From NCBI RefSeq assembly GCF_004010195.1, contig NC_057719.1:29916423-29980422 (forward strand): DNA of 64,000 nt. Reading direction: 5' to 3'. This DNA comes from Chiloscyllium plagiosum. Its lineage: Eukaryota. The notes beneath the pieces were generated by a model. It was not told the DNA's origin. It searched no databases and saw nothing but the letters and a program-made list of their open reading frames with translations. Shown piece after piece: positions 3,132 to 56,722 of the stretch. The position numbers were made by a program, and so were the translations under genes. Position 1 is the first letter of the stretch; each line of letters begins with the position of its first letter.

Positions 3132-6100
3132 AGAGTCATAGAGATGTACAGCACGGAAACAGACCCTTTGGTCCAACTTGTCCATGCCGACCAGATATTC
3201 CAACGCAATCTAGTCCCATCTGCCAGCACCTGACCCATATCCCTCCAAACCTATTCATAAACCCATTCAGATGCCTGTTAAATGTTGCAATTGTACCAGC
3301 CTCCACCACATCCTCTGGCAGGTCATTCTATACACATACCACCCTCTGCATGAAAAAGGTGCTGCTTAAGTCTCTTTTATATCTTTCCCCTCTCACCCTA
3401 AACCTATGCCCTCTAGTTCTGGACTCCCCGACCCCAGGGAAAAGACTTTATCCTATCCATGACCCTCACGATTTGATAAGGTCACCCCTCAGCCTTCAAT
3501 GCTCCAGGGAAAACAGCCCCAGCATATTCAACCTCTCCCTATAGCTCAAATCCTCCAACCCTGGCAACATCCTTGTAAATCTTTTCTGAACCCTTTCAAG
3601 TTTCACAACATCTTTCTGATAGGATGGAGACCAGAACTGCATGCAATATTCCAACAGTGGCCTAACCACTGTCCTGTACAGGCACAACATGACCTCCCAA
3701 CTCTTGTACTCAATATTCTGACCAATAAAGGAAAGCGCATCAGATGCCTTCTTCACTACCCTATCTATCTGTGACTCTACTTTCAAGGAGCTGTGAAACT
3801 CTACTCCAAGGTCTCTTTGTTCAGCAACACTTTCAAGGACCTTACCATTAAGTGTATAAGTCCTGCTAAGATTTGCATTCCCAAAACGCAGCACCTCTGT
3901 ATCCAGATAGCTAGTTCTCCCTATATTCCATGAGATCTAACCTTGCTATCCAGTCTCCCATGGGGAACCTTGTCGAACGCCTTTCTGAAGTTCATATAAA
4001 TCACATCCACAGCTCTGCCCTCATCAGTCCTCTTTGTTACTTCTTCAAAAAACTCAATCGTTTATGAGACATGATTTCCCATGCACAAAGCCATATTGAC
4101 TATCCCTAATCAGTCCTTGCCTTTTCAAATACATGTGCATCCTGTCCCTCAGGATTCTCGCCAACAAACTGCACACCACCGACATCAGGCTCACTGGTCT
4201 ATAGTTCCCTGGCTTGTCCTTACCACCTTTCTTAAACAGTGGCACCACGTTAGCCAACCTCCAGTCTTCCAGCACCTCATCTGTGACTATCGATAATACA
4301 AATATCTCAGCTCACTTCTGTAGCTTCCCACAGAGTTCTATGGTACACCTGGTCAGGTCCTGGGGATGTATGCACCTTTATATATTTCAAGACATCCAGC
4401 ACTTCCTCCTCTGTAACATGGACATTTTTCAAGATGTCACCATCCCTTTCCCTACATTCTATATCTTCCATGTCCTTTTCCACAGTAAATTCTGATGCAA
4501 AGTACTCATTTAGTATCTCCCCCATCTCCTGCAACTCCACACAAAGGTTGTCTTGCTGATCTTTGAGGGGCCCTATTCTCTCCCTAGTTACCCTTTTTTC
4601 CTTAATTTGTAAAAACCTTTTGGCTTCTCCTTAATTCTATTTGTTAAAGCTATCTCATGTCCCCTTTTTGCCCTCCTGATTTCCCTCCTAAGTATACTTC
4701 TACTGCCTTTATACTCTTCTAAGGATTCACTCAATCTATCCTGTCTACCCCTGACATATGCTTCCTTCTTTTTCTTCACCAAACCCTCAATTTCTTTAGT
4801 CATCCAGCATTCACTATACCTACCAGCCTTTCCTTTCACCCTAACAGGAATATACTTTCTCGGGATTCTTGTTATCCCATTTCTGAAGACTTCGTATTTT
4901 CCAGCCGTCTCTTTACCTGTGAATATCTGCCTCAGTCAGCTTTTGAAAGTTCTTGCCTAATACTGGCAAAATTGGACTTTTCTCCAATTTAGAACTTCAA
5001 CTTTTAGGTCTGGTAAAACCTTCTCCATCACTATTTAAAAACTAATAAAATTATGGTCGCTGGCCCCAAAGTGCTCACCTACTGACACCTCAGTCACCTG
5101 CCCTGCTTATTTCCCAAGAGTAGGTCAAGTTTTGCATCTTCTCTAGTAGGTACATCCACATACTGAATCAGAAAATTTTCTTGTATGCACTTAACAAGTT
5201 TCTCTCCATCTAAACCCTTAACACTCTGGCAGTCCAAGTCTATGTTTGGAAAGTCAAAATCCCCTACCATAACCACCCTACTATTCTTGCAGATAACTGA
5301 GATCGCCTTACAAATTTGTTTCTCAATTTTCCTCTGACAATTTGGGGGTCTATAATACAAGCCCAATAAGGTGATCATCCCTTTCTTATTTCTCAGTTCA
5401 ACTCAAATGACAACCCAAATATCCTCCCTCAGTACAGCTGTAATGCTATCCTTTATCAAAAACGCCACTCCCCCTCCTTTCTTGCCTCCCTTTCTGTCCT
5501 TCCTGTAGTATTTGTATCCTGGAACATTAAGCTACCAGTCCAGTCCATCCCCGAGCCATTTTTCTGTAATTGCTATGATATGCCAGTCCTGTGTTCCTAA
5601 TCATGCCCTGAGTTCATCTGCTTTCCCTGTTCGGCCCCTTGCATTGAAATAAATGCAGTTTAGTTTATCAATCCTACCTTATTCTTTGCTTTGTCCCTAC
5701 TTGCCCTGACTGTTTGACTCACTTCTGTTCTCAACTTACCAGTCTCAGATTGATCTCTTTCCTCACTATTCCCCTGCATCCCCCCCCCCCCCAATCCCCA
5801 CCTTAGTAGTTTAAATCCTCCCGAGCAGCTTTAGCAAATCTCCCTGCCAGTATATTAGTCCCCTTCTAATTCAGGTGTAATCCGTCTTTCTTGTACAGGT
5901 CACTTCTACCCCAAAATAACTTTCAATGATCCAAAAATATGAATCCTTCTCCCGTACATCAGCTCCTCAGCCATGCGTTCATCTGCTCTATCCTCCTCTT
6001 CCTGCCCTCACTCGCTCGTAGCATCAGGAGTAATCCAGTGTTACTACTCTTGAGGACCTCCTTTTTAAATTCCTGCCTAACTCTCTCTATTCTCCCTTCA

Positions 6101-11144: not shown

Positions 11145-12088
11145 CTCCCCTTACCAGTCGTGGCTGCCTTTTTATCCAGCTCTCCCTTCTTCTCTTCCCA
11201 CTGATTTTTGGAGGTGACACTGAAAAGGTCAGCTTGAATTGCTAGGCTTATGGGTGAGCATACAGCTATTATCAGTGACTTTATCATTTATCATTCCACT
11301 TTACCCTGCTGGGCAGTTCTATGAACATCGTTGAATTAAAATGCCATTTTCTTATGTTAGAGTAAGGTATTTTTATTGAGTTAGTTTAATGTATTATACA
11401 AATTAACTTTTCTCTTTTTGGCTTCAAACCATTTATTTTGATTTGTTTCTTTTATTTACATTTTTGATTTCAAATTTCATGTCTTGATTTTTAAGGGTAT
11501 ATGTTAGATTTGAGGCCCAAATCCCATTACAGAACAAAACAATAAATGGATTGTTCAATAAAGAAGAGCTTAAGTACAAAGATAATTATTAATACAGGTT
11601 TATCAATATCCTTGTTTTTAAGATGGAGTCCAAAATTCCAGAGCTGGATTTAGCTCTTTGAAATTTCTTTAGAGGGGAATGAGGCTAGGTGTTGTTGATT
11701 GACTAGCTGGTAGTTAAGGAGTGATGAACTGTTTCTTTTCTTTAGTTTCAAATTTCTTCTGAAGAAAATTGCTAAAATGTAAATTCTCCTTTGCTGTTTT
11801 GATGAAAGAAGGCTGATTAAATACTTAGAAAAGGAGAAATGAGGACTGCAGATGCTGGAGATCAGAGCTGAAAATGTGTTGCTGGAAAAGCGCAGCAAGT
11901 CAGGCAGCATCCAAGAAGCAGGGGAATCGATGTTTCGGGCATGAGCTCTTCTTCAGGAATGAGGAGAGTGTGCCAAGCAGGCTAAGATAAAAGGTAGGGA
12001 GGAGGGACTTGGGGGAGGGGCGTTGGAAATGCGATAGGTGGATGGAGGTTAAGGTGAGGGTGATAGGCCTGAGTGGCACCCTTTCCTC

Positions 12089-12124
12089 ATTCCTGAAGAG
12101 GGGCTCATGCCCGAAACGTCGACT
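12089..12124 (+). ncRNA. Minimal type I hammerhead ribozyme motif (intact core)
   Basis: CUGAAGA 12093-99, stem II GGGC-UCAU-GCCC, GAAA 12113-16, palindromic stem III ACGU, GUC triplet ending 12120; stem I is weak. Confidence 0.75.
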
Positions 12125-12872
12125 CTCCTGCTCCTTGGATGCTGCCCGACCTGCTGCGATTTTCCAGCAACACATTTTCAGCTCCAGTTCTGTGGGATCC
12201 TCCCTGATCTCACTGATTCCTGATAAATCACCAACAATGACTCCACAATTTCCTCAGCTATTCCCTGCTGTAGTCCGTGTGGTCGAGGCAATTTATCCAT
12301 TTTCAGACCTTTTAGCTTCCCCAGACCATTATCCTAAGTGATGGCCACCACCCTCACCTCTGCCCCCGAACTCTCTGTCATGCTGTTGGTATCTTCGATT
12401 CACATTTTCCAGCGATCTAATGTCCACTCTTGCCTGTTCCTTCCTTTGTACACAGTATATCTACAAAAAGCTATTTCCAACCTCCTTTTGTATAACAAGC
12501 TAGCTTACTCTCAGATTTCATCTTCTTCCGTTTATTGATGTTTTAATTATCCTTTGGTGGTTTTCAAAAGCTTCCCAATCCTGTGGCTTCTCAATAATCT
12601 TTACTTTCTATTTGCTTCACCCATAAACATAGACATGTCCACCGAGAAAAACATCAGCATGGAACGTAACGGTGTGTATTTTCAAAAACATATATCTATA
12701 AACGTGAACATTTTTCCTAATCTGCAATCTTCTTCCTGACCTCTCCGCCCCCACCCCCACTCCGGCCTATCACCCTCACCTTAACCTCCTTCCACCTATC
12801 GCATTTCCAATGCCCCTCCCCCAAGTCCCTCCTCCCTACCTTTTATCTTAGCCTGCTTGGCACACTTTCCTC

Positions 12873-12908
12873 TTTTCTGAAGAAGGGCTCATGCCCGAAA
12901 CGTCGATT
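12873..12908 (+). ncRNA. Minimal type I hammerhead ribozyme motif (intact core)
   Basis: CUGAAGA 12877-83, GGGC-UCAU-GCCC, GAAA-CG-UC ending 12904. Confidence 0.72.
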
Positions 12909-15679
12909 CTCCTGCTCCTTGGATGCTGCCTGACCTGCTGCGCTTTTCCAGCAACACATTTTCAGCTCTAAATAGTTGGAAAAAACAAGTACAGGTTGTT
13001 GTTTGCTTTTTACAGGTCAGAAGTTCTTAGCCAGTAGTGAGGGCTTTTGATATGATCAGGCAGTGATTATGAAGAAGCATTGGTGCCTTAACTGACCACT
13101 ATTTCAAAATTGTAAGATTATAAGGCCTTTGTTTTCAATTCTGAGGCTGTGACCAAGACTTTATTTGTTGTGAGGAAATCCGTTACCATTGAGATAAAAG
13201 CTTGCACTGCAGATCAACAACTGTTCATGGCCCCATCCCAGAGGCTAAGCAGAAAGTCATTAATACAGCATCTTACAGGAAAGAAGTAATTTGCAATTCT
13301 GCTGTGTATGGCCTTTTCCTGGAGACCATGTGTCTTTGTGGCCATTTATAACATAATATTTAGCATTCCAGTTCCATCAGGAAGTGCATGAAGCATTGAT
13401 TGTCTAGCTGACTCTTGTTTCTGAGAAGCATCTGGAAGGCTACTGCTAAGTCTAGTCATGTGAGTATAGCATCTATGTTTGAATTTTTAATAATTTTATA
13501 ACAGTGACTAAATAAATATAGACATGCATTAAAGTGAGTTCCTCATCCTTTTGTGGCAGTATGGAAATACTACCTCAAAATTACTGATGCTGACTAGATT
13601 TTTTACAATGGAAAGTGATAAGTCTATTTGAAAAACATTTCCCAATTAAGTTAAATATGTTAATTGACAGCGGAATAAATAGAAAGTGTTTTTTTTAGAA
13701 AATACTGTAGCAGGAAAGATGATATAGCAGCTTTCAAGTAAATTATTAATTTACATTTTTGAGGTCACTTCTAAGATATTATAGGAGATGCTATTTTCTT
13801 CTTGTAGAAGGTCTCACAACAGCAGCACAGCTTACTTAGTAACTTGACTCATATAATGTTCTCATTTATTTTTCAAGAGTTCAGTAGATTAACATTTTTT
13901 ATTCTCGAGTCTGGGAATCTACACTGTTTCTGTGGTAATATAATGGCATTTTAAGACTGTTGGCTTCTACTGTCAATGGAGAGTAACTTTGGGTGAAATG
14001 TGCAGTCTAATTTGAGAGACCAATCCAATATAAGACTCCTCGCAATGAGAACCCCTGGTTGTTTGTGTTCACACCAATTTGTGTTCACCCTGGCTGCAAT
14101 CTAACTACAACCCTGTGAAAGCCATATTTTGAGGATGACTGGGTAATTCCTTTTGAAGATTTTCACCTTCAGTCCAAAAGCAGTTTGCCCCCATAATATT
14201 AAAAGTTAATGCATTAGTAACATTTACTTGATTGATATATTTCCATATTCCAAGTTAACTATGCAGTGTGTGGCCATTTAAAATTAGAAGTATAACACTA
14301 AGAATATTCTGTTCTTTTATGAGACACTATGATTGGCCAGTATATAAATTCATATTTTTCAGTCCTGAATAAACAAATTGTCACAAATGATTGCATGGTC
14401 TTTGTAGTACTGGAAACATCATTTACTGTGAAATAGGAACAGGAATGGCCTATTTCAACTACTGCCTATGTCTGCAATGATCCTGCTAAAAGTAAGTGGA
14501 TTCCGGTTAACAGTTCTTGCTTTGTTCTTTTATCTTTCCTTAATTTTCTTCATTCTTATTGTTCATGTCAAGTTCATGTCTGATGAAATATTGACCACTT
14601 CAGGAATTTCACCATTATTGTCAGTGATGAAATTTCTCTACCAACCTCATCAAGAAATATGTAATATTATGTTCCTAAATGCAGCCTCACCTCTTACTCA
14701 TCTTTTGCTTATTGCCTGTTGTCCACTGGTGATAATATCAATATTTACAAAGGTTAACTTACAATGTGTATTCATTGAATATAACAACACTTTGAACTTG
14801 CTTATTTGCTAGTTCTTTTCAAATGTTTTGTTGTTTGCATTGTTTCTTTGTAATGAACAATTCTTCCTAACACTTGATGAGCAGAAATAATTCAAAACTA
14901 ATTCTAGCTTTGTACTTAAAATATGACAGTCTTCTATGACCACTCTTTGATTGTTTGAACACCATCTTGGCAGCAAAGATCGAATACTAAATACGTACCA
15001 CTGTAAGCATAATCGGTTTGGTTCTAATTCATGTCTGATGTCTTGCCACAGTCATTCAAACGTAATGTGACACAGGATTGAATAAAAAAACATGGCACTT
15101 GATGGTGTAGAGAGTTAGAACACTGTCCACACGTGGTAAATTTGCCTGCAGCTATTATTATAGTACATTACCTAGGTCCAAGGCTTTAAATTTACATTCA
15201 TCTAAATATTACTTCACCTGTATGCAGAGAACCTCAGTTATCCGAACGAGGTGAGTGGGCACTATTTCGTTTGGATAATTGATTATTTGGTTAATTGATT
15301 TCCTCCGGGGCTCAGAGTTTTCTGTGACGTCTGCTCCCCATTCAGGAGACTACGCAATAGCACACCGCACGCGAGATCCCACCCCCCGTCCACTCCCCAA
15401 CCCCTTCCGCTCCCACCCTGCCACCCTGTCCACCCCCACGCACCGTCTGACCCCGTCCTTGCCCCTGTGTCCCTGGGGAAAAAGTGATGAGCTGTCCAGA
15501 GTAAGTGTGTAGGAGACATAGAGGCCATGCATGGTTAGTAGCATGGAGGAATTAGGCGTGTGGGAGTGAGAAAGGATGTTGCACTGAATAGTGAGAATGG
15601 TAGAGCATGGATCTTGGTGCCGGAGCAGAAATAGTAAGTGTGAGTTAACAAAGAGAAGAAGATGGTATTTATCAATGAC

Positions 15680-16050: not shown

Positions 16051-16065
16051 GTAGGTTGTCAATGA

Positions 16066-16250
16066 GGAGAAAGTGAGGACTGCAGATGCTGCAGATCTGA
16101 GTTGAGAGTGTGGTGCTGGAGAAGCACAGCAAGCCAAGCAGCATCCGAGGAGCAGGAGAATTGACATTTCGGGCATAAGCCCTCCATCAGGAATGAGGAG
16201 CCTCATTCCTGATGAAGGCCTTATGCCCGAAACGTCTATTCTTCTGCACC
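16066..16250. mobile_element. Fold-back Penelope-like element with hammerhead motifs on both strands
   Basis: Hairpin centre gaatgagg-ag-cctcattc (16191-16208); + core CUGAUGA 16209-15..GAAACGUC 16229-36; minus core mutated to CUGAUGG; flanks taggttgtcaatga (16052-65) / taggtagttaatga (16251-64). Confidence 0.8.
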
Positions 16251-16464
16251 TAGGTAGTTAATGAAGTATGTTTGGAACAATAGCGTGAAACATTCACTAG
16301 GCCTCGTGGAGAGAAGACTCCTAAACTAAAATGACACTTTTGTCAAAATATTGTAAGATTCAACCCAGCAGGTCTGGACTGGTAAAATTTAGTAAGTTAC
16401 ACAGAGCAGCATGTTTTCCAGAAATGTGTCTTGCTTAAAGAGACCTGAGCTAAGATGGATTTTT

Positions 16465-17504: not shown

Positions 17505-18790
17505 TAAGACCATAAGATATAGGTGAAGAAATTAGGCCATTCAGCCCACTGAGTCTGATCTGTCATTCAATTATTGCTGAAAGTTTCTCATTCCCATTCT
17601 CCCACCTTTCTCCGTAACCTTTAATTCCCTTGACAATCAGGAACCTATCTACCTCAGTCTTAAATACACTCAATGACCTGGCCTCCACAGCCTTCTGTGG
17701 CAGTGAATTCCATAGATTCCCCACTCCCTGGCTATAGACGTTTCTCCTTATGTCCATTCTAAAAGGTCTTCCCTTTACTCTAAGGCAGTGCCCTTGAGTC
17801 CTAGTCTCTCGTACCAATGGAAATATCTTCCCAAAATCCACTCTATCCAGGCCATTCAATTTTCTGTAAGTTTCAATTAGATCCCCCCTCATCCTTCTAA
17901 ACTCCATCAAGTATAGACCCAGAGTCCTCGAACGTTCCTCATATGATAAGCCTTTTATTCCTGGGGCCATTCTCGTGAACCTCCTCTGAACATGCTGCTG
18001 GGCCTGTACATCCTTCCTGAGATAGGGGCCCAAAACTGCACACAATACTCCAAATGTGGCCTGACCAGAGCCTATTGAGCCCCAGAAGTACATCCCTGCT
18101 TTTAAATTCAAGTCCTCCCATAATAAATGCCCTCATGGCATTTGCCTTCCTAGCCACTGACTCCACCTGCAAGTTTACCTTGAGAGAATCCTGGACTAGA
18201 ACTCCCAAGTCTCTTTACTCTTCAGACTCCTGAATTTTCTCCCCATTTAGAAAATAGTCTATGCCTCAATTCTTTCTACCAATGTGCATGACCTCACACT
18301 TCCCAACATTGTACTCCATCTGCCCTTTTATATATCGAAAGAAACTCTTAAACTCTTCCTTTATGTTACTGGCTGGCTTACCCTTATATTTATTCTTCTC
18401 CCTCTTTATTTGTTTTCTCGTTCCCTCTGTTGATCATTGTAAACTTCCCAATCCTCTGGTTTCGCACTGCCCTTCACCATATTATATGCTTTCTGTTTTG
18501 CTTTTATGCTATCCCTGACGTCCCTAGTCAGCCAGGGTTGCCTCATCCTCCCTGTACCATGCTTCTTTTTCCTCAGGATGAATCTCTACTGTGTCTCCTG
18601 AATCATTCCCAGAAACCCTTGCCATTGTTGTTTCACTCTTTTTCCTGCTAGGCTCCTCTCCCAGTCAATTCTACCTGGCCCCTCCATCATGCTTCTGTAG
18701 TTGCGTTTATTCAGCTAAAAAAGCATTCCCTCTGATGCTGTCTCCCCACTCTTGAACTGCAGAGTAAATTCAATCATAACCATAATAGGA
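17505..18790 (-). mobile_element. CR1 LINE 3' fragment (second family) with internal deletion
   Basis: ORF 17563..18111 (VQRRFTRM..RRMRGDLIETYRKLNGLDRVD), CR1-type 3' UTR; sequence jumps to upstream ORF2 near 18325. Confidence 0.85.
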
Positions 18791-20320: not shown

Positions 20321-21490
20321 CATTACTTTATTATCCAGATTTTTAAGACATACAATAAAGGATTAATGCACTTTTTATGCCAAAACTGTGACAAAGAGTG
20401 TTTTTCCAATTCTGGTCAGCCCTAACTTGTCATCAACATGCATATATATTGTAGGTCTCTGTTAAACTAACTAAAAATATCGGTAAGTAAAACCAGAAGT
20501 GTACTATAAGAACCATCTCTTATTAATATCAGTGATGAAGAGCAGTGTTTTTGATGAGAAACACCATTCCAATGTATATGTACAATGGAGACCAAGGAAA
20601 GAAAGCAAAACAGTATTCATTTCACTTTAAGATTTGATGGTATTGGGAAATGAGGAGAAGGTGTAATCAAGAAAGGATGGAATAGGTTGCTGTAAGATGA
20701 TCTCATTAAAATGAAGAAATAAAGATTAGATATCAGGAAGAAAATGAAAGTTTGAACCTAAAGAAAAATAAATACAGCAGGAACATTAGAAAAGTAATTA
20801 GGTTAATGTTCTTCCCTTATTGTGTGGTTAATAATTTTAATAATGTAAATAATAAAATTACAGATCATGAAATTTCAGTAGCTGGCAAGTCAAACACTTG
20901 AAGTACTGTATCAAACATTTTGGATTTGGCAAGGCTGTCTATATAATGAAAAGGTTTCTGTAATGCATATCACAATTAACTATGTAGATAACAGTTAAAT
21001 ATATTCTGCATTACTGTGCCCTTTTACTATCTAAAACATGCTGTAAAGTGTTAGGATGTTCTCCAGTGACAATTACCTTTTGTAATTGTGCTATTTATTG
21101 TTGCATGCCCTCTTCTTGATTTTAATTATGCATTTTAAACTTATGTATTGCCTTCAATAAAACAGTATTATAACAATATTTCCTTTAATATGAAGACTGA
21201 TTTCTAACACATACCGTTACTAGTTTTGAAATCGGTTAAGGACAAAATTGGCCTTCATTCTAAAGAAGCTCGCTGTTGTATCAATAGTTTCTTACGCCTG
21301 TGCTTCATTATTGATGCTACTGCTTCAATTTACTTGTGTGAATCTTGCTGTAAAGGAGAATACCTTCAATGAACTGTTAGTACACAACCTCACATAAACC
21401 ATTTGGACAAATTACAGTATTGGATTAAATGCAGAATTAAGAGCTAAAATCACAATTATCATTGTTCCATCTTTCTCATTTTCTTTTTAG

Positions 21491-22165
21491 AAGTTACAGA
21501 AGGATCACTTGTTAGCTCAACAGGTTTGGAAGAGTATAGTCCAGAGATTGGCACAACAAGACAAGTTCTAAGCTTTGAGTCTCACGGTATGACCAGCTCA
21601 GATTTCGGAATAGAGATGGTACCAGGGGATTCTATTGACTTGGCCAAAGCTTTGGTGGACCCTGTTGGGGCAGAGAAGACAGAATTCCAAAACTACATTG
21701 ATATGTGTCATTCAGAAGAATCGAAAGTTCAGGAGTTATCCAAGATGCACTGGGAAGAGAAAATGTCTTTCCTAGATGACACATCAGCTGACATAGAAGC
21801 CTTCCCAGAAGCTCCGAAAAAGTCAGTTGAGGAGATAAAATTGATAGAAGAAATGAGCCCTTGTCTGAGTCCTGAGGAATCAACGACTGCACCATATGTG
21901 GAAGAGCCTTCAGATGAAGACATTTCAGAGAAATGGGAAATGGAGGACACCCAGCACAACGTTCACACAGTGGATACATGTGCATCACCAGCCCATGTTT
22001 TGCTTACTGAGCTAGAAACCATAGTAGATCCCAATAGCAGGTGCAAGTCTCAGCGTGAACAAGACATGAAACCAAAACAAGGATCCGATGTAGTGCCAAC
22101 TGTGACTGTATCAGAGCCAGATGATGACAGCCCAATCTCCCAAACGCCTACTCCCTCAAGCTCAG
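21491..22165 (+). CDS. RTN1: Reticulon-1A-like internal coding exon (equivalent to RTN1 exon 2), 675 bp, phase 1-1
   Basis: Polypyrimidine tract + tag acceptor at 21490; donor cag|gtaac at 22165/6; open frame with ESHGMTSSDFGIEM, EESTTAPYVEE, PAHVLLTELE and VPTVTVSEPDDDSP..PSSSG, matching RTN1-A motifs recalled from human (SSDSGIEM, EESTFAPY, VPTVTVSEPEDDSP). Confidence 0.85.
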
Positions 22166-25118: not shown

Positions 25119-26844
25119 ATTTTTTTTTCTGGAAATTGCATTCATTCCTTGTTTTTCTTTTCTTTCTCAACTTTCATGACCCTGAAAGCTTTACTTTCCT
25201 ACCAGTTTTCCTCCTCATATCTTCTCTTCTTTTGTCATTGATTTCTTCCTGGGGTAAAATTCCATTATGCTGATCCATTTCTTGTACTATTCACATATGA
25301 GCCTTGATGGTTGTTGACAGAATATCTAACCATGATCAGCATCACAGTAAGACTATTTTGCTGTCTCTTCTTGCCAGCTTCACACATTTGTGTATGATAT
25401 ACTAATCCAACGCTTCCAGAGGACGTGCATGATATACATTGTGTTATTTTGGCCAAAAACTGGATTGGTATTGTACCTTGCTTAGATGTATTTAAAGCCA
25501 TCACCAGTGCTACTCTTAATCCAGTATTTTCAACTGATGTCATTGCATGTTGTTCCCAGCATTATCATAAATAATGGTAGTAAAGATTTATTTAGTACAA
25601 ATAATTAATTGAAAGTGTAAATAATTTTCCTTTAAGATTTGACCTTCATTGCTACTGATATTCATTCATGGTTTATTGTAATTGCATTTAGCTTAAAAAG
25701 AAGCATCCAATATGTTTCCCTAAATTGCCTGGCGCCAGTATGCTTCTGTTTTTTGGAAACTTGCTACTGTGCATTTTTAATTTCCTGCTCTATAAAATAG
25801 AGAGGGATGAAATACACAATTTTTAAAGTGTTTGAGTGTCCCTCTAATTTTTGTTTGTAAAATAGTTAAAAAATGTGAAAAGTTTATGAATTTATATCCT
25901 GTCATGTGCACAAATAGTGGAAGTATTTCAGTGAAATGACATCAGCCCATCTATTTGAAAACCACATCCCTCTGCAATTTAAGAATGAGAATGCTTAGCT
26001 GTATCAAATTAAGTTTCCATTTCCTGATTCCTGACTTATAGAGGGACTTTAAAGTTAAATACACCTTTGTTTTTTTTTAAATGGCTCTTAAAATTCAAAC
26101 AGGGCATTTCTAATAATTACAGCATAGCAGTCAGTCTTTGGGTCAGTGGAATTGTGTACAGTACCTTGAAGTTAGATGGGCATGTAAAGTTTCCAGTTTT
26201 ATATCCCTGATGGTGACACTAGAGCTTCGGTTGTTAAAGTTAATGCAGAGCCTTCCTTTTTAAATGCTCTTCTATGACAGTGAGTAGAATCTGACATGCC
26301 TATAATATTCAGTGGGACAGTACTGGAAAAAGCATCCATGAAAGGTAGACTAAATTATTCACTAGCACTTTAAATGAAGAACTAGAAATAGGCATGTAGA
26401 ATTATTAGGGAAAGCCACATTTGGCATGACCAATTGTTGAATTTCCTGTTACACTCTGTTGTTAAGTAGGCAAATATTAGATGTATATTATAGTAGCTCC
26501 CTAAAATGGGTAGAGAAAAGATTAGTGGCAATACCATTGCTGGCTTGTTCTTGTACACATCCGTAAGACCAGCCAAAGAGCATTTTAAGCAAGGTGTAGT
26601 TTCAGAATGCTTGCCCACCAACTTGATGGCTATGAGATTAAAAAGTCCATTTGCAACAAGAATCTGTTTTACGAGGATGCATTTTCAGTCTAGCTCTTCC
26701 TTCCTCGACATACAACTGAGCTTTTAAAAATGCAAAACTTAACAGATGTGGTGTTGATAATAAACTTGATGTACTATTACAGCAGCAAAAAAAAAACTTT
26801 GGGTGCTCACTGAGCATATTTTCTGTCTGCATTTATGATTGCAG

Positions 26845-27657
26845 AAGAGTCTGATTCACAGATTGAAGCTGCTTACCATTTTCTGGAGGAGGAACACCCT
26901 GTTGCCAGCAAGACATCAGAGCAAACTCAGTGTTTTTCTTTAAATACCACAGAAGAAGAGACCTCCCCAAGTGCTGCCTTAACAAAATTAGATGAGTCTG
27001 CACAGAATTTGTCAAATCTACCAGCAATGACATTAGATCTAGAGGCCAGCAGTGCTGAATCTGGAGATTCTGAGATAGAGGTAGTACCAGATGAATCACT
27101 GTCTGTGGAAGAAGCAGAAGATTGCAGCTATATGGCATTCAGACAGGCTGGTGGGACTCCACCTTCTTCCGTTTCTTCGGTCCAGTATAGCATCTTGAGG
27201 GAGGAACGTGAAGCTGAGCTTGACAGTGAGCTCATCATTGATCCATATGATGTTTCATCAGCATCTGAAGAGAGTCTCCAAAGAGAACAAGGCTCCCCTA
27301 TGAAATCTAATAGCATGGGGAAAGAGTCTGCTGAAAAAGCCTTGATAATGGACAACCAGCAAGAATCAGATCATCAGTCAAGTCAATTAGCTGAGTATGC
27401 TGCAACTTCTATTCTCAAAGGTTCTAATGGAACTGAGGTAGCCACTATTGAGCCCCTTATCCCCCTCGATTATACAGAAGCTTTCATTACACCTGAAGTA
27501 GTAGTTGAAGAACCATCTTCTGAAGAAGTCTCTGAAGAAACAGCTGGAAAAATAAGTGATAGCAAATCCTCAGACAGAGCCAAGACTGGAAAAGATTTCG
27601 ACAACAGCCAGCCTATTACTTCTGAGCAGTTTCTACTGGTACTCAATAAGAAATCAG
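26845..27657 (+). CDS. RTN1: Reticulon-1A-like internal coding exon (equivalent to RTN1 exon 3), 813 bp, phase 1-1
   Basis: Acceptor ttgcag at 26844, donor cag|gtaac at 27657/8, in frame with the upstream exon; encodes EASSAESGDSEIE, QYSILREEREAELDSELII, SSASEES..REQGSP; ends LVLNKKS where human has LFLNKQK just before the RHD exon. Confidence 0.9.
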
Positions 27658-31100: not shown

Positions 31101-31492
31101 ATGATTTTGCTTTGCTGTTACATACTTTTAAATTATTTGTTCGAATTCCTAGAAACCTCTGTTCATACATTTTTTCCTCATTCCATATTTATTGGACCTT
31201 TCTTAGAAAGTCCATTGTTTCATATTGTTTTGCAGTAAAACGATCTTTCATAATTTACTTTGATGTTCACAAGCTCTGCTTTAATTGCACCAGAAAGTTC
31301 CAATATCATGTTCCCAATGCCCAAGTGCAAGAAGCCATCAAGAATAAAAATGGACCCATCACTAACCATTGAAATACACCCTTCCCTGCCCTTCTTCAAT
31401 GCAAGCTTTTTAATTAAAAAGATGAAGTTATTAACACATCTAAGATAAATGGTTACAGCCCATGTTAATGTACTGGACAAAGCAATTTTATT

Positions 31493-31683
31493 CTGGATTA
31501 GTGGTGCTGGAAGAGCACAGCAGTTCAGGCAGCATCCAAGGAGCTTCGAAATCGATGTTTCAGGCTAAAGCCCTTGCCCAAAATGTCGATTTCGAAGCTC
31601 CTTGGATGCTGCCTGAACTGCTGTGCTCTTCCAGCACCACTAATCCAGAATCTGGTTTCCAGCATCGCAGTCATTGTTTTTAC
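31493..31683. mobile_element. Fold-back Penelope-like element with perfect 65-bp inverted repeat
   Basis: 31491-31555 is the exact reverse complement of 31586-31650; perfect 15-bp TSD caaagcaattttatt (31478-92 / 31684-98); hammerhead core deleted at the centre. Confidence 0.9.
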
Positions 31684-32490
31684 CAAAGCAATTTTATTGT
31701 GATATTGTAAGTCTAACTTATTAATTTCTAACAAAGTAAAATCATGGTTACTGGATGACAATTTATAACTGAAATATCAGGACACACAGTGTGAATTTAT
31801 ACTGACATATACATGGTGATGATGATATTGTTGTCTTTGTGCATGCACTTGCTTCATAGGTTGCATGCACCTGGTAATGACCAGTAAAAAGCTTTCCATT
31901 GATTGTCAAAATACACAAATAAGTTACTCTTAGCTATATCTGTTGGTCTTCATCATTTGGATAATATAAACAGCCCATATTCAAAGCAATAGAGAGCATC
32001 TATTGATCTATCCATACCATTACATTGCTTCCCTAAAAGATAATCGATGAAGCACATAGTATTTTAACAAACCACAATCAATAATAGAGTTTTTGCCACA
32101 CCACCAATTATAAGGATGTCTGGGATGTGGAATGGAAAAATGGGTGGCTGTTCATTCATCATGAGAAAAAGATCTGATTGCTTCTTTCTTAATTGTAATA
32201 CTGACAGTCCATCAATAGTCTTTCCAAGTTTTGTTTTACCATAATACTAGCCATTAAATCAGATCATTGCTTTCACTTTAGTACTGAGTCATATAATTAT
32301 TACTTCTGTTTAGGAAAGCTTGAGAAGCAGAATTTTCAAAGCAAAATTTTTACGTCTTCTATGGGAGATTTCGAGGGGGGATTGCTCAGAAGTAATAACT
32401 TGAGAATTGCTTGACAAACAAAAACTAAGGTCCATTTAGTTTGCCTTCCAGCTTAGCAGTAGTCACATAATAATGAAATTGACTAATAGC

Positions 32491-32618
32491 TTTCCTGATG
32501 AAGGGCTTTTGCCTGAAACGTAAATTTTCCTGCTCCTTGGATGCTGCCTGACCTGCTGTGCATTTCCAGCACCACACCTTCAACTCTAATCTCCAGCATC
32601 TGCAGTCCTCAGTTTCAT
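32491..32618 (+). mobile_element. Short Penelope-like element beginning at its hammerhead motif
   Basis: CUGAUGA 32495-501, GGGC-UUUU-GCCU, GAAA-CG-UA ending 32522; TSD ctaatagc (32483-90 / 32619-26). Confidence 0.8.
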
Positions 32619-33395
32619 CTAATAGCAATTAATGTTTATCAATTATTCTGCAGCTGATCCAGACATAACACAAGAAAACATCTGCTAGGGAAAATCTTTG
32701 GAAAGTGTGGGTCCAACATCACCTACTCAAGTGTTTTTCATTTGCGTATGTCATGTTTTAAATTAGTCATCAACTTAGAACAAAATGTGATTTCTTGAAA
32801 GAAATATTAGCCAATTTATATTTGAATGCATCAATGCTAATGGCTTCACTGTCTCCCCATAGATTTGCCAAGAGCTCACAGAAATAATGTTGCTGCAAAT
32901 TCATGTTGAATTCACCCCTCCTCAAAACAGGTCATGTCTTTCAGCACTACTGTTCTTGTCTGCATAATGTAATCCCTTTGAGTCATAAAATCAACCATCA
33001 TGTTTCCTGCTAATCTACCCCTTTACATTGACAATATGTCCAGTAGCTCTTCATATTCCAGACCCCATAAACCCTCAGATATTCTGGTTTCCTGGCTTCT
33101 GTATCCTTACAATTACTAACATTTTATCACTTTTGCAACTAGAAGAGATACAGTATCCCGAGTGCATTGACATCAATGATTTATAAAATAACTGAATTAC
33201 TGCACTGTTTTGATTCAAAATTCAGGTGAAGGCATCCATAATTAGATAGTGAGCACCCTTTTGGCTACTTTTAACCTGGTCAGTCCAGGAAAAATTGGTG
33301 TTGGGTGACTGCTGACGACATGGTACATGGTAGCGACTTGAATTTGATGCCCAAAATCAAATTGGAAAATCCTGCCCAGGATTCTTTTCAATCAG

Positions 33396-33568
33396 AATTG
33401 AAAGACCCGCGGATGCTCTAAATCGGAAACAAAAACAGAAATTGCTGGAAAATCTCAGCAGGTCTAGCAGCATCTATGAAGGGTCATCAAACCCAAAACA
33501 TTAACTTTGATTCCTCTTCACAGATGCTGCTAGACCTGCTGAGCGTTTACAACAATTTCTGTTTTTGT
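33396..33568. mobile_element. Fold-back Penelope-like element with truncated hammerhead remnant
   Basis: About 50-bp inverted arms gaaacaaaaacagaaattgctgg..cagcatct / agatgctgctag..gtttttgtttc; flanks ttcttttcaatcag (33382-95) / ttcttttaaatcag (33569-82). Confidence 0.75.
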
Positions 33569-34821
33569 TTCTTTTAAATCAGTTTGTGTACCTGAGACCA
33601 GATATAATGCTAACCTGAAAATGAACCGAAAGCATCTATCAAAATATTTAAATGAAATTATAGATACATTATGAAGAGTGATTTGATTAGTCTGTTAAGA
33701 AGGTTGCTATTCTACCAGACATTCACATTTTGTATTAAACAGTAAGTTTATTCTAAACAAATGAACCAAAAGGAAGTTAAAAAATTGGCACAATTTTATG
33801 ACATAATATAAAAGATTTAGAATTAAAATTGGGATGTGCTTTATTTTTCTGGTATTTGAACTGTGAAGCTTTGGGGAATACACTGCCTTTTCACTTCTGA
33901 GATGTAGTGCCACATTTCCTTCCCAAGTGGTTGATCAAGTTTCCTTTTACTATCGGTTGAAGTGATCCCATTTCATAATTTATTGGTTAACAGTTTAAAA
34001 CTTTAGTACTTTGACTTAAGTCTTCCCTAAATTGGGGACATCTGGATGGTTGGTATGGGATTTGTTTTATAATTGTGACAATGTTAATTACATCAATATT
34101 ATGCTACATTTTAGAACACAGTAAATTGAGCCCTACAGTAAAGCTGCAAACAATATAAATTTTCATAAACATATTTTGAGTCAAACTATGTTTAATTTAA
34201 TTGAGAAATTAGACTCGAGGTGAAAGCTATTTTTTATGTTGCAATTCATGAATGCCACGTAGTTGACATGAAAATGTTGCCTTTAATTCTGAATATACTT
34301 GGATCTTTAGAGCATACAAAGTGGTAGAAATAGAAGCAGGAGTATATCATAGACTTTAAGAGCTTGCTCCATCATTTAATAAAATCATGACTGATCTTAG
34401 GCTTCAACTTTTCTCTCTATTCATTGATTCTTTGAGATTTTGAAAAAAACCTTTCTATCCCAGCCTTCTCTCTATTCTAAAATAGCTTCCACACCTCTGG
34501 AGTACAGAATTCCAAAGATTTACCATCTTTTGAGTGAACTAGCTTCAATTAATCTTGTCTTAAATGATTAGCCCCTTATATTGAACATTGTGTCCCTTAT
34601 TCTAGATTCCCTGACCAATGGACACAATCTCTCAGCAACCACCACATCAAGCCCCTTCAGAATCTTGTACATTTCAATGAGGCTGCTTCCCATTCTTCTA
34701 AACTCCAAGGAATATAGACTCCGTTTACTCAGCTCATTGTCAACTGATAACCCTCTCTCTTTGTATCATCAGGACATAGATTTAATAGGCTGTCTATTCA
34801 TGAAAACCATTTATATATGTT

Positions 34822-36199: not shown

Positions 36200-39100
36200 A
36201 ACATCAATGACTGGGCGAGCTTTAATTGCCCATTCCAACTGCAAGAAGGTGATAGTGAGTTGCCTTCTTGAACTTATGCAGTACTTGGAATGTATATACA
36301 CCTACATTACTGTTAAGAAAGGAGTGCCAGAACTTTCTTACCATGACCAAGAATAATTGGCAATATAGTTCCAAGTCGGGTTAGTGCATAGTTTGGACAG
36401 GAACTTGCAGATGATGATGTTCCCATATATCTGTCACTCTTATTCTTCTAGATGGCAGAGATCATAGATTTAGTGGGTATTAATAAGGAGTTTTGAAATG
36501 GTACACACTACTGCCACTGTGCATATGTGATGAAAGGGATCAATGTTAATGGTGGTGAATGTGGTGCTAATTAAGCTGGCTGCTTAGTCCTGGATGGAAT
36601 AAAGTTTCTTGAGTGTTTTCAAGCTGTATTTATTCAGAAACGTGGAGAGTATTCCATCTAATCTCTGACTTCAGCCTTGTAGACAGAGGACTGACACGGG
36701 ACAGGCAGTGAGTTACTCTTTTCAGAATTCATAGTCTGCAACTTGCTTTTATAGTCATAAAATGGCTGAACTACTCCAGTTTTGGTTAATGTAACCACCA
36801 GGGTAGTGTTGGATTCACTGATGGCAATGCCATTGAATATCAAGAAGAGATGGTTAGATTATCAATGGAAACCAATTCTTGATGTTGTCCAGGACTTGCT
36901 TCATAAAGGTTTCAGCTAGTTCAGTATCTAAGGTGTAGTGAACAGTGCTGAAAATGATGCAATGATCAATAAATACATCAATTTCTGTCCTTGTGATAGA
37001 GGGAAGGTCCATCGATGAAGCTGTGAAGATGGTTGGGTCTTGGACACTACACTGAGGAATTCCTGCAGACTATCCTGGGACTGAGATGACTGACTTCCAA
37101 TCACCACAATCGTCTGTCTTTGTCTCAGTATCACTACAACAAGTGGAAGTGTTTTCCATCTCATTTCTATTAGAGTCATAGACTCATGTAGATGTACAGC
37201 ACGGAAACAGACACTTCGGTCCACATCGTCCATGCCGACTAGACATCCTAACCTAATCTAGTCCCATTTGTCAGCACCCAGCCCATATCCCTCTAAAACC
37301 CTTCCTATTCATATACCCATCAGGTACCTTTTAAATGCTGCAATTGTACCACATCTTATGGCAGCTCATTTCATATATGCACCACCTTCTGTGTGAAAAG
37401 ATTGCCCCTTAGGTCTCTTTTATATCTTTCCCCGCTCATCCTAAACCTATGCTGTCTAATTCTGGACTCCCCCCACATGCCCCTCATAATTTTGTAAACC
37501 TCTATAAGGTCACCCCTCAGCCTCCGACGCTCCAGGGAAAACAGCCCAGCCTGTTCAGCCTCTCCCTGTAGCTCAAATCCTCCAACCCTGACAACATCCT
37601 TGTAAATCGTTTCTGAACCCTTTCAAGTTTGACATTATCCTTCCAATAGGAAGGAGACCAGAATTGCAGACAATATTCCAAAAGTGGCCTAATCAATGTC
37701 CTGTACAGCTGCACCATGACCTCCCAACTCCTAAACTCAATACTCTGACCAATAAAGGAAAGCATACTAAACACCTTCTTCACTATCCTATCTACCTGTG
37801 ACTCTACTTTCAAGGAACTATGAACCTGTACTCTAAGGTCTCTTTGTTCAACAATACTCATTGTGACCTTACCATTAAGTGTATAAGTCCTGCTAAGATT
37901 TGCTTTCCCAAAATGCAGCACCTCACATTTATCTAAATTAAACTTGATCTGCCACTTCTTAGCCCATTGGCCCATTTGATCAAGATTCTGTTGTAATTTG
38001 AGGCAACCTTCTTTGCTGTTCACTGTACACTGCTGTACACCTTCAGGTTTGGTGTCATCTGACTTACGAACTATACCTCCTATATTCACATCCATATCAT
38101 TTATATAAATGACAAAAACTAGTTGACCCAGCACCAATTATTGTGGCACTCCACTGGTCACAGGCTTCCAATCTGAAAAGCAACCTTCCACCATCACTCT
38201 CTGTCTTCTATCTTCGAGCCAGTTCTGTATCCAAATGGCTAGTTCTCTCTGTATTTCATGAGCTTTTACCTTGCTAACCAGTCTCCCATGGGGAACCTTG
38301 TTGAACACCTTTCTGAAGTCCATTTCAATCACATCCACCATTCTGCTCTCATCAATCCTCTTTGTGACTACTTCAAAAAACTCAATCAAGTTCATGAGAC
38401 ATGATTTCCCACACACAGGGCTATATTGACTATCCCTATTTGGTCCTTGCGTTTCCAAATACAAGTAAATCCTGTCCTTCAGGATTCCCTCCAACAACTT
38501 GCCTATCACCAACACCAGGCTCACCGGTCTATAGTTCCCTGGCTTTTCCTTACCACCCTTCTTAAATAGTGGCACCACGTTAGCCAACCTCCAGTCGTCC
38601 GGCACCTCACCTGTGACTATTGATACAAATATCTCAGCAAGGGGCCCAACAATTACTTCACGAGCTTCCCACAGAGTTCTGGGGTACAAATGATCAGGGG
38701 ATTTATCCACTTTCATGCATTGCAAGACATCCAGCACTTCCTCCTCTGTAACATGGACATTTTTCAAGATGTCACCATCTATTTCCTCACATTCTCTATC
38801 TTCCATTTCCTTCTCCACGGTAAACACTGATGCAAATTATTTGCTTAATGACTTCCCCATCTCCATAGGCTGCCATGCTGATCTGTGAGGGGCCCTATTT
38901 TCTCCCTAGTTACCCTTTTGACATTAATGTGTTTATAAAAGCCCTTTGGATTCTCCTTAATTCTATTTGCCAAAGCTATCTCATGTCCCCTTTTTGCCCT
39001 CCTGATTCCCCTCTTAAGTATACTCCTACTGCCTTTATACTGTTCTCAGGATTCTCTCGATCTATCCTATCTGTACCTGACTTATGCTTCTTTCTTTTTC

Positions 39101-41260
39101 TTAACCAAAACCTCAATTTCTCTAGTCATCCAGCATTCCGTACACCTACCAGCCTTTCCTTTCACCCTAACAGGAATATACTTTCTCTGCATTCTCGTTA
39201 TCTCATTTCGAAGACTTCCCATTTTCCAGCTGACCTTTTACCTGCAAACATTTGCCCCCAATCAGCTTTTGAAAGTTCTTGCCTAATACCGTCAAAATTA
39301 GCCTTCCTCCAATTTAGAACTTCAACTTTTAGATCCGGTCTACCCTTTTCCATCACTATTTTAAAACTGATACCTCAGTCACCTGCCCTGCCTTATTTCC
39401 CCAAGAGTAGGTCAAGTTTTGCACCTTCTCTAGTAGGTACATCCACATACTGAGTCAGAAATTTTTCTTGTACACACTTAACAAATTCCTCTCCATCTAA
39501 ACCCTTAAGACTATGGCAGTCCCAGTCTATGTTTGTAAAGTTAAAATCCCCTACCATAACCATCCTATTATTTTTACAGATAACTGAAATCTTCTTACAA
39601 ATAAATCTGTTTCTCAATTTCCCTCTGACAATTTGAGTGTCTGTAATACAATCCCAGTAAGGTGATCACCCCTTTCTTATTTTTCAGTTCCACCCAAATA
39701 ACTTCCCTGGATGTATTCCCCCTAAGTACAGTTGTAATGCTATCCCTTATCAAAAACACCACTCCCACTCCTCTCTTGCCTCCCTTTCTGTCCTTCCTGT
39801 AGTGTTTGTATCCTGGAGCATTAAGTTGCCAGTCCTGCCCATCCCTGAGCCATGTTTTTGTAATTGCTATGATATCTGAGTCCCATGTTTCTAACCATGC
39901 CCTGAGTTAGTCTGCCTTCCCTGTTAGGATTGGTCCCACTTTTGTTAAGGTTCTTTAGTGTCATATTTGATTAAATGCTGCCTTGATGTCAAGAGCAATA
40001 CCCTCATTGCACCATTCAAATCCAGTCCTTTGTCCATGTTTAGAGCAAGACTGTATTGAGGTCAACAACTGAGTGGCACTTGCGGAATCTAAACTCAGCT
40101 TCAAAATCAGAGTAGTTTATTGCTGAGTAAATGCTACTTGTTAGCACTTGATACCCATTTCATGACTTTGCTAATGGTTGAGAGTGGGCTGGCAGGGCAG
40201 TGATTGATTGGGTTGTGTTTGACCTGTGTTTTTGTGGGTAGGACAAACCTGAATAACTTTCTACATTGTCAAGTAGATGTAGTATTGTGGGTGTACTGGA
40301 ACAGGTTGGCTAGGGACCCAACTATTTTTGGAGCACAAGCTTTTGGTACTATTGACGGAATGTTATAATGAATTTTGTAGTATTTGTTTTCCTTAGCTGT
40401 TTCTTTTTAATACGTGGAATGAATGGAATTGGCTGAAGACAGTGTTTATGATGCTTGGGGCTTCTGGAGGATGCAAAGTTGGATCATCCACTCAGTACTT
40501 TTGACTGAAGATGGATGCAAATACTTCAGCCTTATCTTTTGCATCAGATCCACCATCATGGACGATGAGGATATTTCTAGAGCCTCCTTTTCGAGTGAGT
40601 TGCTTAACCATTCACAATTTGCCATAGCATATTGCAGAGATTAGGTCTGATCCTTCAGTTGTGCGATCACTTAGCCTTGTCTGCTGCTTCTGCAGTTTGG
40701 CATGCTTGTAGTCTTGTGATGTAGCCTCACCGGGTTGATGCTCCACTTTTAGGTATGCCTGGGGTTGTGCACATGTCCTGCTGCACCTTTCATTGAACTA
40801 AGGTTGTTCCCTAGCTTGATGGTAATGGGGAAATGGGGAATTTTGCTGGCTTGTGAGGTTACAGCTTGTGGTGAAATATGTTTGATACTTCAGATGGCCC
40901 ACAACATCTCATGGACATCCAACTTTACATTGTTTGAAATCAGTCCCATTTAGCATGTTGGCAGTGCTTTACAACACAATGGGAGTGTATTCTTAATGTG
41001 AAGACAGGACGGAATCTCAAGAACTGTGTGGTGGCCACTCTGACCAATATTGTCTCACACAGGCAGATTAGAGAAGATGAGAACAAATAATTATTTCCCT
41101 CCTATTGCTTTTCTCATCAGCTGCATGCCCAGTCTATCATTTATGTCCTTCAAGCTTCATCCACTTCAGTCAGTAGTGGTGCTGCCAAGCCTGCTCGGTG
41201 ATGGACATTGAAGTTCATCCAGAAGATATTGTGTGCCCTCACTATCCTTGGTGCATCCTC
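36200..41260 (-). mobile_element. Old L2-like LINE split by a younger CR1 insertion
   Basis: Segments 36200-37170 and 39930-41260 are collinear with the similar element at 48780-51300. Confidence 0.5.
37170..39930 (-). mobile_element. 5'-truncated CR1 LINE (APE + RT + 3' UTR)
   Basis: ORFs 38138..38827 (GNYRPVSL..DFRKVFNKVPH..VTSGVPQ), 37517..38137 and 39393..39617; tail tagagtcatagactcatg. Confidence 0.92.
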
Positions 41261-44900: not shown

Positions 44901-45272
44901 CTAGCCACGAAACGACACGACCAGCTATCCTTAGTAGCCACACACGCAGATGACAAGCAACATGAGTTTGACTGGGACAACACTACTATTATAGGACAAG
45001 CCAAACAGAGAACAGCCAGGGAATTCTTAGAGGCATGGCACTCATCCACTGATTCAATCAACAAGCACATCGACCTGGACCCAATATACCAGCCATTGCA
45101 GCGGACAGCTGGAACTGACAACCGGAAGCGGCAGGTTCAAACCACTACAAATGCCAGAGGAAAGATCACAGAAGCACTTCACAGGAGGCTCCCGAGCACT
45201 GAGGATGTCACCTAGACAGGGGACGAAACGTCTGCAACACAAATTCCCAGCTCGGCGAACAGAACCACAACA
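44901..45272 (+). mobile_element. 3' end of a Penelope-like element: endonuclease C-terminal ORF remnant plus pseudo-LTR
   Basis: Uninterrupted frame 44901-45215: LATKRHDQLSLVATHADDKQHEFDWDNTTIIGQAKQRTAREFLEAWHS..INKHIDLDPIYQPL, the pattern that follows GIY-YIG in PLEs; no ATG, so it is absent from the ORF track. Confidence 0.85.
45196..45235 (+). ncRNA. Minimal type I hammerhead ribozyme motif (family C)
   Basis: Stem I GCA/UGC, CUGAGGA 45199-205, stem II GUC-A-CCU(AGAC)AGG-G-GAC, GAAA 45225-28, CG-UC ending 45232. Confidence 0.8.
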
Positions 45273-50929: not shown

Positions 50930-51840
50930 CTTTTTGCCAAGTATCACTCCAACCAGCAGGCAGTTTTCTATCCTCAATCCCACGGATTTCAGTTTTGCTA
51001 GGATTCATTTATGTCATATTTGATCAAATGCAGTTTGATGTCAAGGGCAGCTGTTCTCATCTCACCTCTGGAATTCAGCTGTTTTGTCCATGTTTGAACC
51101 AAGGCTAGAATGAAGTAAGGAGCTGAATAGCCCTAGTGGAACCCAAACTGGGTGTCAGTGAATATATTATTGATAAGAAAGTGCTGTTTGATGGCATTGT
51201 TAATGATTGCTTCACCGACATTTGAGAGTGGACTAAAGTGGCATTAACTGGCTAGGTTTGGATTTGTCCTGCTTTTTATGTAGAGGACATACCTGGACCA
51301 TATTTTTAGGTAGATCCTAGTGTTGCAGCTTGGGTTGCAGGGTGAAGTAGGTTTTGTGATGCTAATGTAAACGAATAAGAAATATACCGTGAATTGATAT
51401 GTAAAATCAACATATTACAGTATGAGGGATAAAGGACGCTACTCAGCCCATTATCACAATGCTTACATTCTGCTTGTTGCCACAATTCGATCAGCCGTGA
51501 GATTATTGAATGGAGAAGAGACTTGAGGGCTGAATGGCCCATTTGTGTCTACATTTCTAATGTACCTCTCAGAATATTTTAATTCAGTTATCATGAGGAA
51601 TTGGTTCCGCATCGTGAACAAACTACAGAAAAGGGACCCAGTGCTCCTAATCAGGTAAAGTAAATATTGTGTCTCAGTCTCAGTAGTTTGAGAATCTGGA
51701 AGAAACAATTCCATATAATCTATCATTCACCATGTTCAAAACATCACTGTGCATCTGTGGCAGCAACTAAGACTGTCCTGGAGGCCAGATGAAATGCATT
51801 TGAGTGGATTTTAAGGCTGTGATGCTGCTAATTTAGATGG

Positions 51841-51941
51841 GAGGCTTATGCCCGAAAGAAGGGCTTATGCCCGAAACATCGATTCTCCTATTCCTTGGAT
51901 GCTGCCTGACCTGCTGCGCTTTTCCAGCAACACATTTTCAG
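51841..51941 (+). mobile_element. 101-bp Penelope-like insertion with duplicated hammerhead stem II
   Basis: Perfect 15-bp TSD tgctaatttagatgg (51826-40 / 51942-56); ggcttatgcccgaaa occurs twice in tandem; CUGA core missing. Confidence 0.85.
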
Positions 51942-52164
51942 TGCTAATTTAGATGGTAAATTTTGTGAATTCAGCTCACTGACCCAGTGCTGGACAGAGT
52001 CTTTTGCTACAATAATATCCAATCAGATTACAGCACCTAGCCATGAAATATCAATCTAAAAACTTTGAATTTTAACTTTTAATTTTAGGGATGTGCATTC
52101 TACTGCTTACCATTTTCACCACAGTTTCCTTCATCAGAGTCTTCTGCATTGCATGATAGATACA

Positions 52165-56651: not shown

Positions 56652-56722
56652 ATTGGCTTAGATTAATTCACAGGTCGACGCAACTTTGAGGGCTGAAGGG
56701 CCTGTTCTGTGCTGTATGTTCT
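56652..56722 (+). mobile_element. Tiny CR1/SINE 3'-tail insertion in the integrase zinc finger
   Basis: gggctgaagggcctgttctgtgctgtatgttct tail motif lies between FYWPGL and EFCQTC. Confidence 0.7.

Follow-up and report, generated by a model that had tools for sequence, protein, structure and literature searches.

A composite repeat unit with hammerhead cores near the shark RTN1 gene: a probable Penelope-like retro-insertion with captured cargo

Anatomy of the composite unit

In a 64,000-nt stretch of the Chiloscyllium plagiosum genome (contig NC_057719.1, positions 29,916,423 to 29,980,422; the window, in which all positions below are counted), an earlier note made from the sequence alone had pointed to a unit with hammerhead ribozyme cores at 11833-12968 and had called it retrozyme-like. 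What kind of element is it, and how did it get there? Read in order, the unit consists of a target-site duplication (TSD), an inverted arm with a 31-32-nt tail, a direct copy of the same repeat, foreign DNA, a second direct copy and the other TSD. The repeats appear, from their anatomy, to be end-pieces (pseudo-long terminal repeats, pseudo-LTRs) of an abundant Penelope-like element (PLE) family, and the unit as a whole is probably a PLE insertion with captured cargo. The features of the locus are as follows, with ORF for open reading frame, EN for endonuclease and RT for reverse transcriptase.

11818-11832, + strand: left TSD, 13 of 15 letters identical to 12969-12983; its last base is common to the element's tail end
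11832-11863, - strand: pseudo-LTR tail of 31-32 nt, on the inverted arm only; matches the tail-bearing copy ending at 61031
11864-12076, - strand: inverted pseudo-LTR arm, 5'-truncated, 213 nt, 95% complementary to 12757-12969
11929-11956, - strand: damaged minimal hammerhead core of the arm, changed at 11947 (helix II) and 11931 (ACGU palindrome lost); no match to the core pattern
12067-12076: junction of arm and direct copy, a 10-nt imperfect microhomology where both repeats overlap and the letters are a mosaic of both
12077-12184, + strand: upstream direct pseudo-LTR stub, tail-less; 7 differences in 108 nt from the downstream copy, 5 of them private
12093-12120, + strand: minimal type I hammerhead core 1, by core pattern match; helix II pairs at 12101-12112, predicted cut after 12120
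12184-12617, - strand: decayed CR1-type non-LTR ORF2 piece bearing stops, frameshifts and deletions; it covers the EN-RT linker and the beginning of RT
12618-12713: 96 nt of cargo DNA of unassigned origin joined to the CR1-type piece; read contig 12536-12679 bridges the boundary
12714-12969, + strand: downstream direct pseudo-LTR, tail-less; 5' edge at 12714-12722; 91% identical to 60750-60998
12877-12904, + strand: minimal hammerhead core 2, by core pattern match; cleavage predicted after 12904; two altered letters, 12873 and 12876, in the 5' strand of helix I
12969-12983, + strand: right TSD (13 of 15), also joined to the pseudo-LTR end in organism B, a related species (read contig 12924-14300)
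21490-22164, + strand: RTN1 (reticulon-1a) exon starting at residue 88, 98% identical to protein P0001, which is named for Chiloscyllium punctatum
26841-27656, + strand: second large reticulon-1a exon, from protein comparison

The exon at 21490-22164 fixes the host strand as +. Residues 1-87 of RTN1 have no match anywhere in the 64-kb window, and other coding exons lie beyond it; therefore the composite unit most likely lies, in sense orientation, in the RTN1 intron before residue 88, where the insertion target is an AT-rich site.

Is this one insertion? The outer flanks agree at 13 of 15 letters, a score equalled by only 4 of 1500 random boundary pairs, while no duplication was found at any of four alternative pairs of inner boundaries, so the TSD stands at the outer ends only and the single TSD-bounded unit proposed before is borne out. 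So are the two direct-repeat hammerheads 784 nt apart, with core matches starting at 12093 and 12877 inside a 118-nt repeat of 92% identity (12067-12184 and 12851-12968), and the inverted third copy, which is the arm with its damaged core. The tail on the arm had not been mentioned. Its letters are those of the family's loose end behind 12969 in read contigs, and its sequence is absent behind 12184 and behind 12969, that is, from both direct copies. Loose ends of the family were also found before 12714 and 12722 in read contigs, and the 5' part of the downstream stub differs from the arm at 2-3 of 104 positions.

Seven further loci that were examined in the window carry this repeat too, several of them with inverted arms. 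Flank duplications of 8-18 nt were found at five (12/14, 17/18, 8/8, 13/15 and 15/15) and weak ones at two (10/12 and 7/9), searched with wider slack than the random-pair null. Two 3' ends, about 31 nt from each other, exist in this family; here the longer is found on the inverted arm and the shorter on both direct copies. An inverted 5' arm, an optional 30-40-nt tail and a TSD are described as marks of endonuclease-bearing PLEs (PMC3846280, PMC8557442), and the tail has been explained by two RT start sites that bound it (PMC11167929). Among the papers found in searches for a description of the shark family, none names it in its title or abstract opening; the supplement of a retrozyme preprint, which covers one chondrichthyan genome, might list it.

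Further short pseudo-LTR insertions of related subfamilies lie at 16052-16264, 31478-31701, 32483-32626 and 33382-33583, three with inverted arms and all with 8-18-nt flank duplications. At 51826-51956 lies a stub whose 15-nt TSD is perfect and whose helix-II region forms a short internal tandem; the target of this stub, at 51942-51956, resembles the TSD of the composite unit, which hints at target preference. The longest copy of the repeat (60715-61031) is tail-bearing and adjoins a decayed non-LTR piece, with no TSD found. A different hammerhead core stands at the end of a 104-aa frame at 44901-45232, for which Pfam gave nothing significant and which we take to resemble a PLE C-terminus.

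As to the hammerheads, the core pattern matches six times in the window (12093, 12877 and four other places), against 0.02 expected by chance. Both direct cores have a CUGANGA box, one extra base, a 4-bp helix II, GAAA and a loop-less ACGU palindrome, with C17 at 12120 and 12904. The conserved core, helix II and the loop-less palindromic helix III are thus present in both direct copies and not in the inverted one. The cores had been called intact, which holds for the conserved core of both; helix I of the downstream copy, however, has two private changes at 12873 and 12876, where the family has the other letter in 95-99% of contig depth in three DNA runs. Rfam gave no match at gathering score over the whole window and, by E-value over 11700-13100, eight weak matches, none of them a hammerhead; a scan of metagenome contigs for the junction motif gave 0. 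The loop-II letter C12890, common to all three copies, was considered as proof of one template and rejected, because 31-58% of family contig depth has it.

Like minimal PLE hammerheads, these cores have no loop 3, a palindromic 15.2-16.2, an extra base between 9 and 10.1 and G10.1-C11.1, and near copies in opposite strands have been described for them too. Unlike the schistosome families, helix II has 4 bp instead of 7-8 bp, and helix I would have only 2-3 pairs with a central mismatch.

The cargo and its copies in reads

What lies between the direct copies? The segment 12184-12589 is antisense to non-LTR ORF2 proteins with EN and RT: 27 of 120 queries match, all 28 matches are on the minus strand, and the best is to P0071 residues 384-547 (E 1e-19). 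Similarity of DNA extends the piece to about 12617, with 67% identity to 18355-18491. The internal sequence is therefore mostly a decayed antisense piece of CR1 type, as had been read before, where CR1 is the name that we take for these EN+RT proteins, a group found in birds, turtles and sharks; the computed support for the name consists of Pfam domains. Pairwise BLASTP, Pfam and a protein search yielded no match for the final 49-aa frame of the cargo, whose identity came from the ORF2 protein alignment. The 96 nt at 12618-12713 have no significant match elsewhere in the window, and the CR1-type piece does not continue into either flank of the unit. Two long decayed non-LTR copies, 83% alike, lie on the minus strand at 3896-5634 and 38224-39928.

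Reads were compared over 12145-14300 in four of 24 listed runs: X1, X9 and X13 (DNA) and X21 (RNA). X1 is from organism A (84% read); X9 and X13 are from organism B, whose flank is 2.4-2.6% different. Note that depth is a rough copy measure, that a junction was taken as bridged under a 31-nt rule, and that holes in depth prove nothing. In X1, the right-flank contig has a depth of 11.4 and no difference in 1353 nt. The cargo contig 12165-12527 has a depth of 145.4 (12.8 times the flank) with 4 other letters, and the contig 12536-12679 a depth of 157.6 (13.8 times) with 1 other letter, spanning the boundary between the CR1-type piece and the unassigned DNA with 82 and 62 nt. Since neither cargo contig has a gap, the CR1 deletions are common to them; since they carry other letters while the flank contig has none, they represent other copies. 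As the deletions are shared and the boundary is bridged, what was copied was the decayed composite and not an active CR1. The depth in this run suggests that the cargo is a small multi-copy family of about a dozen copies. The claim that foreign CR1-type sequence was carried as cargo agrees with this ratio, about 13x on the cargo against 1x on the flank. The first cargo contig reaches 20 nt into the upstream stub, with a non-window letter at 12198, and other cargo copies probably share the upstream-stub junction.

In organism B, the right flank adjoins the end of the downstream stub (the X9 contig starts at 12924, the X13 contig at 12961, 9 nt into the stub), and the depth at 12226 is about 6.8 times that of the flank. 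The word share of 0.40 in organism B was considered as a cargo test and set aside, for it cannot tell whether B has the cargo. Both of its runs have 12 extra bases at 13718.

The depth bears on one of the alternatives, that stubs were inserted independently round a native CR1 remnant and the flanks match by chance or target preference. Stubs are dense enough for such neighbours, about 5% having one on the same strand within 800 nt, and the target at 51942-51956 hints at sequence preference. But the inner boundaries have no TSDs, the outer match is rare among random pairs, and the cargo is about 13 times deeper than the flank; we hold this history to be extremely improbable.

Folding and the prospects of a ribozyme

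Could the unit cut itself out as RNA? The earlier note had proposed release of a 784-nt RNA and had also warned that the antisense arm could block folding. The folds given here are equilibrium models in which protein help is ignored, and one PLE hammerhead needs such help (PMC11167929). When the whole unit is folded, the downstream copy is the partner of the arm (p 0.999; duplex -436 kcal/mol); as long as the RNA comprises just the arm and the upstream copy, the latter takes that place (p 0.999; -192 kcal/mol). One core is thus always paired with the arm in the model, in line with the warning: in RTN1-sense RNA one of the two stubs would be drawn into a 100-200-bp hairpin with the arm, so that the dimer could not form. 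Without the arm, both helices II form; dimer helix III stays at p <= 0.001, and even then the full dimer has to be forced, at a cost of about 20 kcal/mol. The dimer site at 12120, using the downstream copy's helix-I strand, would have U-G, U-A, U.C and U.U; the site at 12904 would have C-G, U-A, U.U and A-U, with three pairs kept. The model does not give a helix I at both sites, and its pairing p is 0.0 in all folds. The 784-nt monomer folds like its shuffles (z -0.20, 10 of 20 shuffles as good) and is not highly self-paired.

Release of the 784-nt RNA from this locus is therefore not what the model predicts, as the arm sequesters one core, the 12120 site needs a decayed helix-I strand and the monomer is no better than chance. 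It seems unlikely that this copy cuts itself out, and the hammerheads may be passengers here, with a long intronic hairpin as the only likely effect of the copy. The RNA run X21 (poly(A) single-cell, 2% read) has 1610 reads, nearly all on the high-copy stub and at a depth below 1 on the cargo; it has no pile of read starts or ends. A library of this type would not reveal a ribozyme cut, and the run therefore speaks neither for nor against one.

Does the label of retrozyme fit? The 784-nt unit plus 108-118 nt makes 1.14 units, not two tandem units, and TRF (Tandem Repeats Finder) found no tandem array with a period limit of 500, which is below the 784-nt spacing. Like animal non-LTR retrozymes (PMC7229834; bioRxiv 10.64898/2026.07.22.740005), the unit is non-coding, multi-copy by depth in one run and related to pseudo-LTRs, with direct-repeat type I hammerheads, a TSD over 4 bp and a GC content of 45%. 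Unlike them, it has 1.14 units instead of at least two in tandem, minimal instead of canonical hammerheads, a monomer that is not self-paired, and an inverted tail-bearing arm. Because two of the retrozyme features tested, tandem units and a self-paired monomer, were not found, we do not class it as a retrozyme, and the label is better replaced by that of a Penelope-like capture.

A retrozyme-type history would nevertheless run as follows: dimer cleavage gave a circular 784-nt monomer, and reverse transcription over more than one unit gave the direct repeat, here or in a tandem source array. In its favour, the two direct copies have undamaged conserved cores and ACGU palindromes, the cargo is multi-copy by depth, published animal retrozyme consensus lengths reach 972 bp with relation to pseudo-LTRs, and sister copies may lack the helix-I changes of this copy. 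Set against this are the sequestered core, the poor helix I at 12120 in the dimer and the shuffle-like monomer. Minimal PLE hammerheads, moreover, cleave weakly as dimers, 1 of 9 frog dimers was cleaved, and a PLE hammerhead was not required for insertion in vitro (PMC11167929). The stubs differ at 7 of 108 positions, more than would be expected of copies of one template at an age of 1-1.3% (p 0.007-0.025; p 0.33 at 2.6%). A single circle as template fits worst, because a circle has no tail, yet the arm carries one, and because of these stub differences. This history is quite improbable.

An unlikely but bolder idea is that of a nascent retrozyme: a scrap of dead LINE (long interspersed nuclear element) was caught between two PLE end-stubs, and the 784-nt unit became a small self-propagating family of about 13 copies, in which intact sister copies without the arm and the helix-I changes release circular RNA that is re-inserted by the PLE protein. 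This locus would then be a silenced member or the parent.

Origin and comparison with known systems

How, then, might the unit have arisen? We favour a non-autonomous PLE retro-insertion with captured cargo, with a probability of about 0.6. At a donor site, two same-strand pseudo-LTR stubs would have come to flank about 530 nt of old DNA, the dead CR1-type piece and its neighbour; with the stub density given above, donor sites with DNA trapped between two stubs would arise by chance. A read-through donor RNA, ending in a tail-bearing pseudo-LTR, would have been bound in trans by a PLE RT/GIY-YIG protein, which would have cut the AT-rich intron site with a 15-nt stagger. One strand may have been primed at the internal start, without the tail, copying the downstream stub, the cargo and part of the upstream stub, and the other at the outer start, tail included, yielding the inverted arm. 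The two cDNAs would then have been joined at the 10-nt microhomology, and the same cargo unit would have been copied about a dozen times. The donor, the template and the two-strand priming are steps that we infer.

The comparison with known systems is in accordance with this. On anatomy, the unit would belong with the known Penelope capture, having direct and inverted pseudo-LTRs, a tail at one end only, a TSD round the whole unit and unrelated internal DNA. In the rotifer Adineta vaga the same capture layout between pseudo-LTRs has been described, where the empty site is proven and other captures of non-coding DNA are reported (Arkhipova et al. 2013, PMC3846280), and the shark unit matches it in arm, tail, direct copies, foreign DNA and TSD. 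The differences are that the host here is a vertebrate, that the TSD has 15 nt (8-10 nt in the rotifer), that the cargo is a dead LINE piece, apparently multi-copy, and that the empty site is proven in the rotifer only. The two alternative 3' ends about 31 nt apart and the AT-rich target are like PLE internal initiation (Frangieh et al. 2024, PMC11167929), in which uncleaved RNA was used as template for insertion, as it would be in the favoured reading. The element there, unlike here, is the autonomous Poseidon element of Anolis, while the shark family is placed by anatomy, not by clade.

Several observations weigh against the capture reading. No PLE ORF is linked to any family copy in the window. 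The raised cargo depth comes from one run of organism A, and the contig over the upstream-stub junction has only 20 nt on the pseudo-LTR side, less than the 31-nt rule. No empty site was seen over 12145-14300, where the right side is covered, as the right flank of organism B carries the stub end. X9 and X13 list no piece on the cargo, with depth 0 at 12198. There is also an age contrast: the cargo differs from its majority at 5 of 507 positions, while arm and stub differ at 10 of 212 and the TSD at 2 of 15 (Fisher p 0.08). This contrast would fit one event at intermediate age, a later addition of the cargo or a parent locus.

A later addition would mean two steps, in which an inverted and direct PLE stub with its TSD landed before the split of organisms A and B, and cargo and pseudo-LTR were added afterwards with no new TSD to the direct stub already in place, either through reverse transcription primed by homology or through recombination with a cDNA. 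In favour of this, the outer parts (12/454 per copy) look older than the cargo (5/507; p 0.08), organism B has the right junction but lists no long piece of cargo and has depth 0 at 12198, short arm and stub insertions exist at 16k and 31k, and nicking of an element's own pseudo-LTR has been proposed (PMC11167929). However, an old cargo donor would be expected in organism B too and is also unlisted there, which may make the hole a technical one; there is little difference between the arm and the 5' part of the downstream stub; and a single age, estimated at about 1.6% per lineage, fits all counts. We regard the two-step history as unlikely.

If this locus were instead the parent, an opposite-strand transcript ending in the tail-bearing arm would be a competent PLE template, and arm, stub and cargo would have been re-copied from it. 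This copy differs from the majority sequence by only 1%, whereas its ends seem older; its tail lies on the minus strand, and antisense templates have been argued for (PMC3846280). But no minus-strand transcript was seen, depth does not fall along the cargo (145 vs 158), and the age difference is not significant, which makes a parent locus very unlikely.

As capture by PLEs is already described, the unit is not new in kind. Under the capture reading, it would add a vertebrate case in which PLEs move and multiply unrelated DNA with nothing but their end-pieces, a way of shuffling genomes that is known mainly from rotifers. The cargo-tagged family of about a dozen copies would be useful because its reads can be mapped, unlike those of the very abundant bare stubs; with it one could test directly whether PLE hammerheads ever cleave in vivo, and whether circles are the source of direct repeats, a question that has stood since 2014.

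Elsewhere in the window, an LTR element is represented at 56690-58388 by decayed frames, integrase-like and RT, with an RVT_1 match at 58059-58388 and the rest read from the ORF list.

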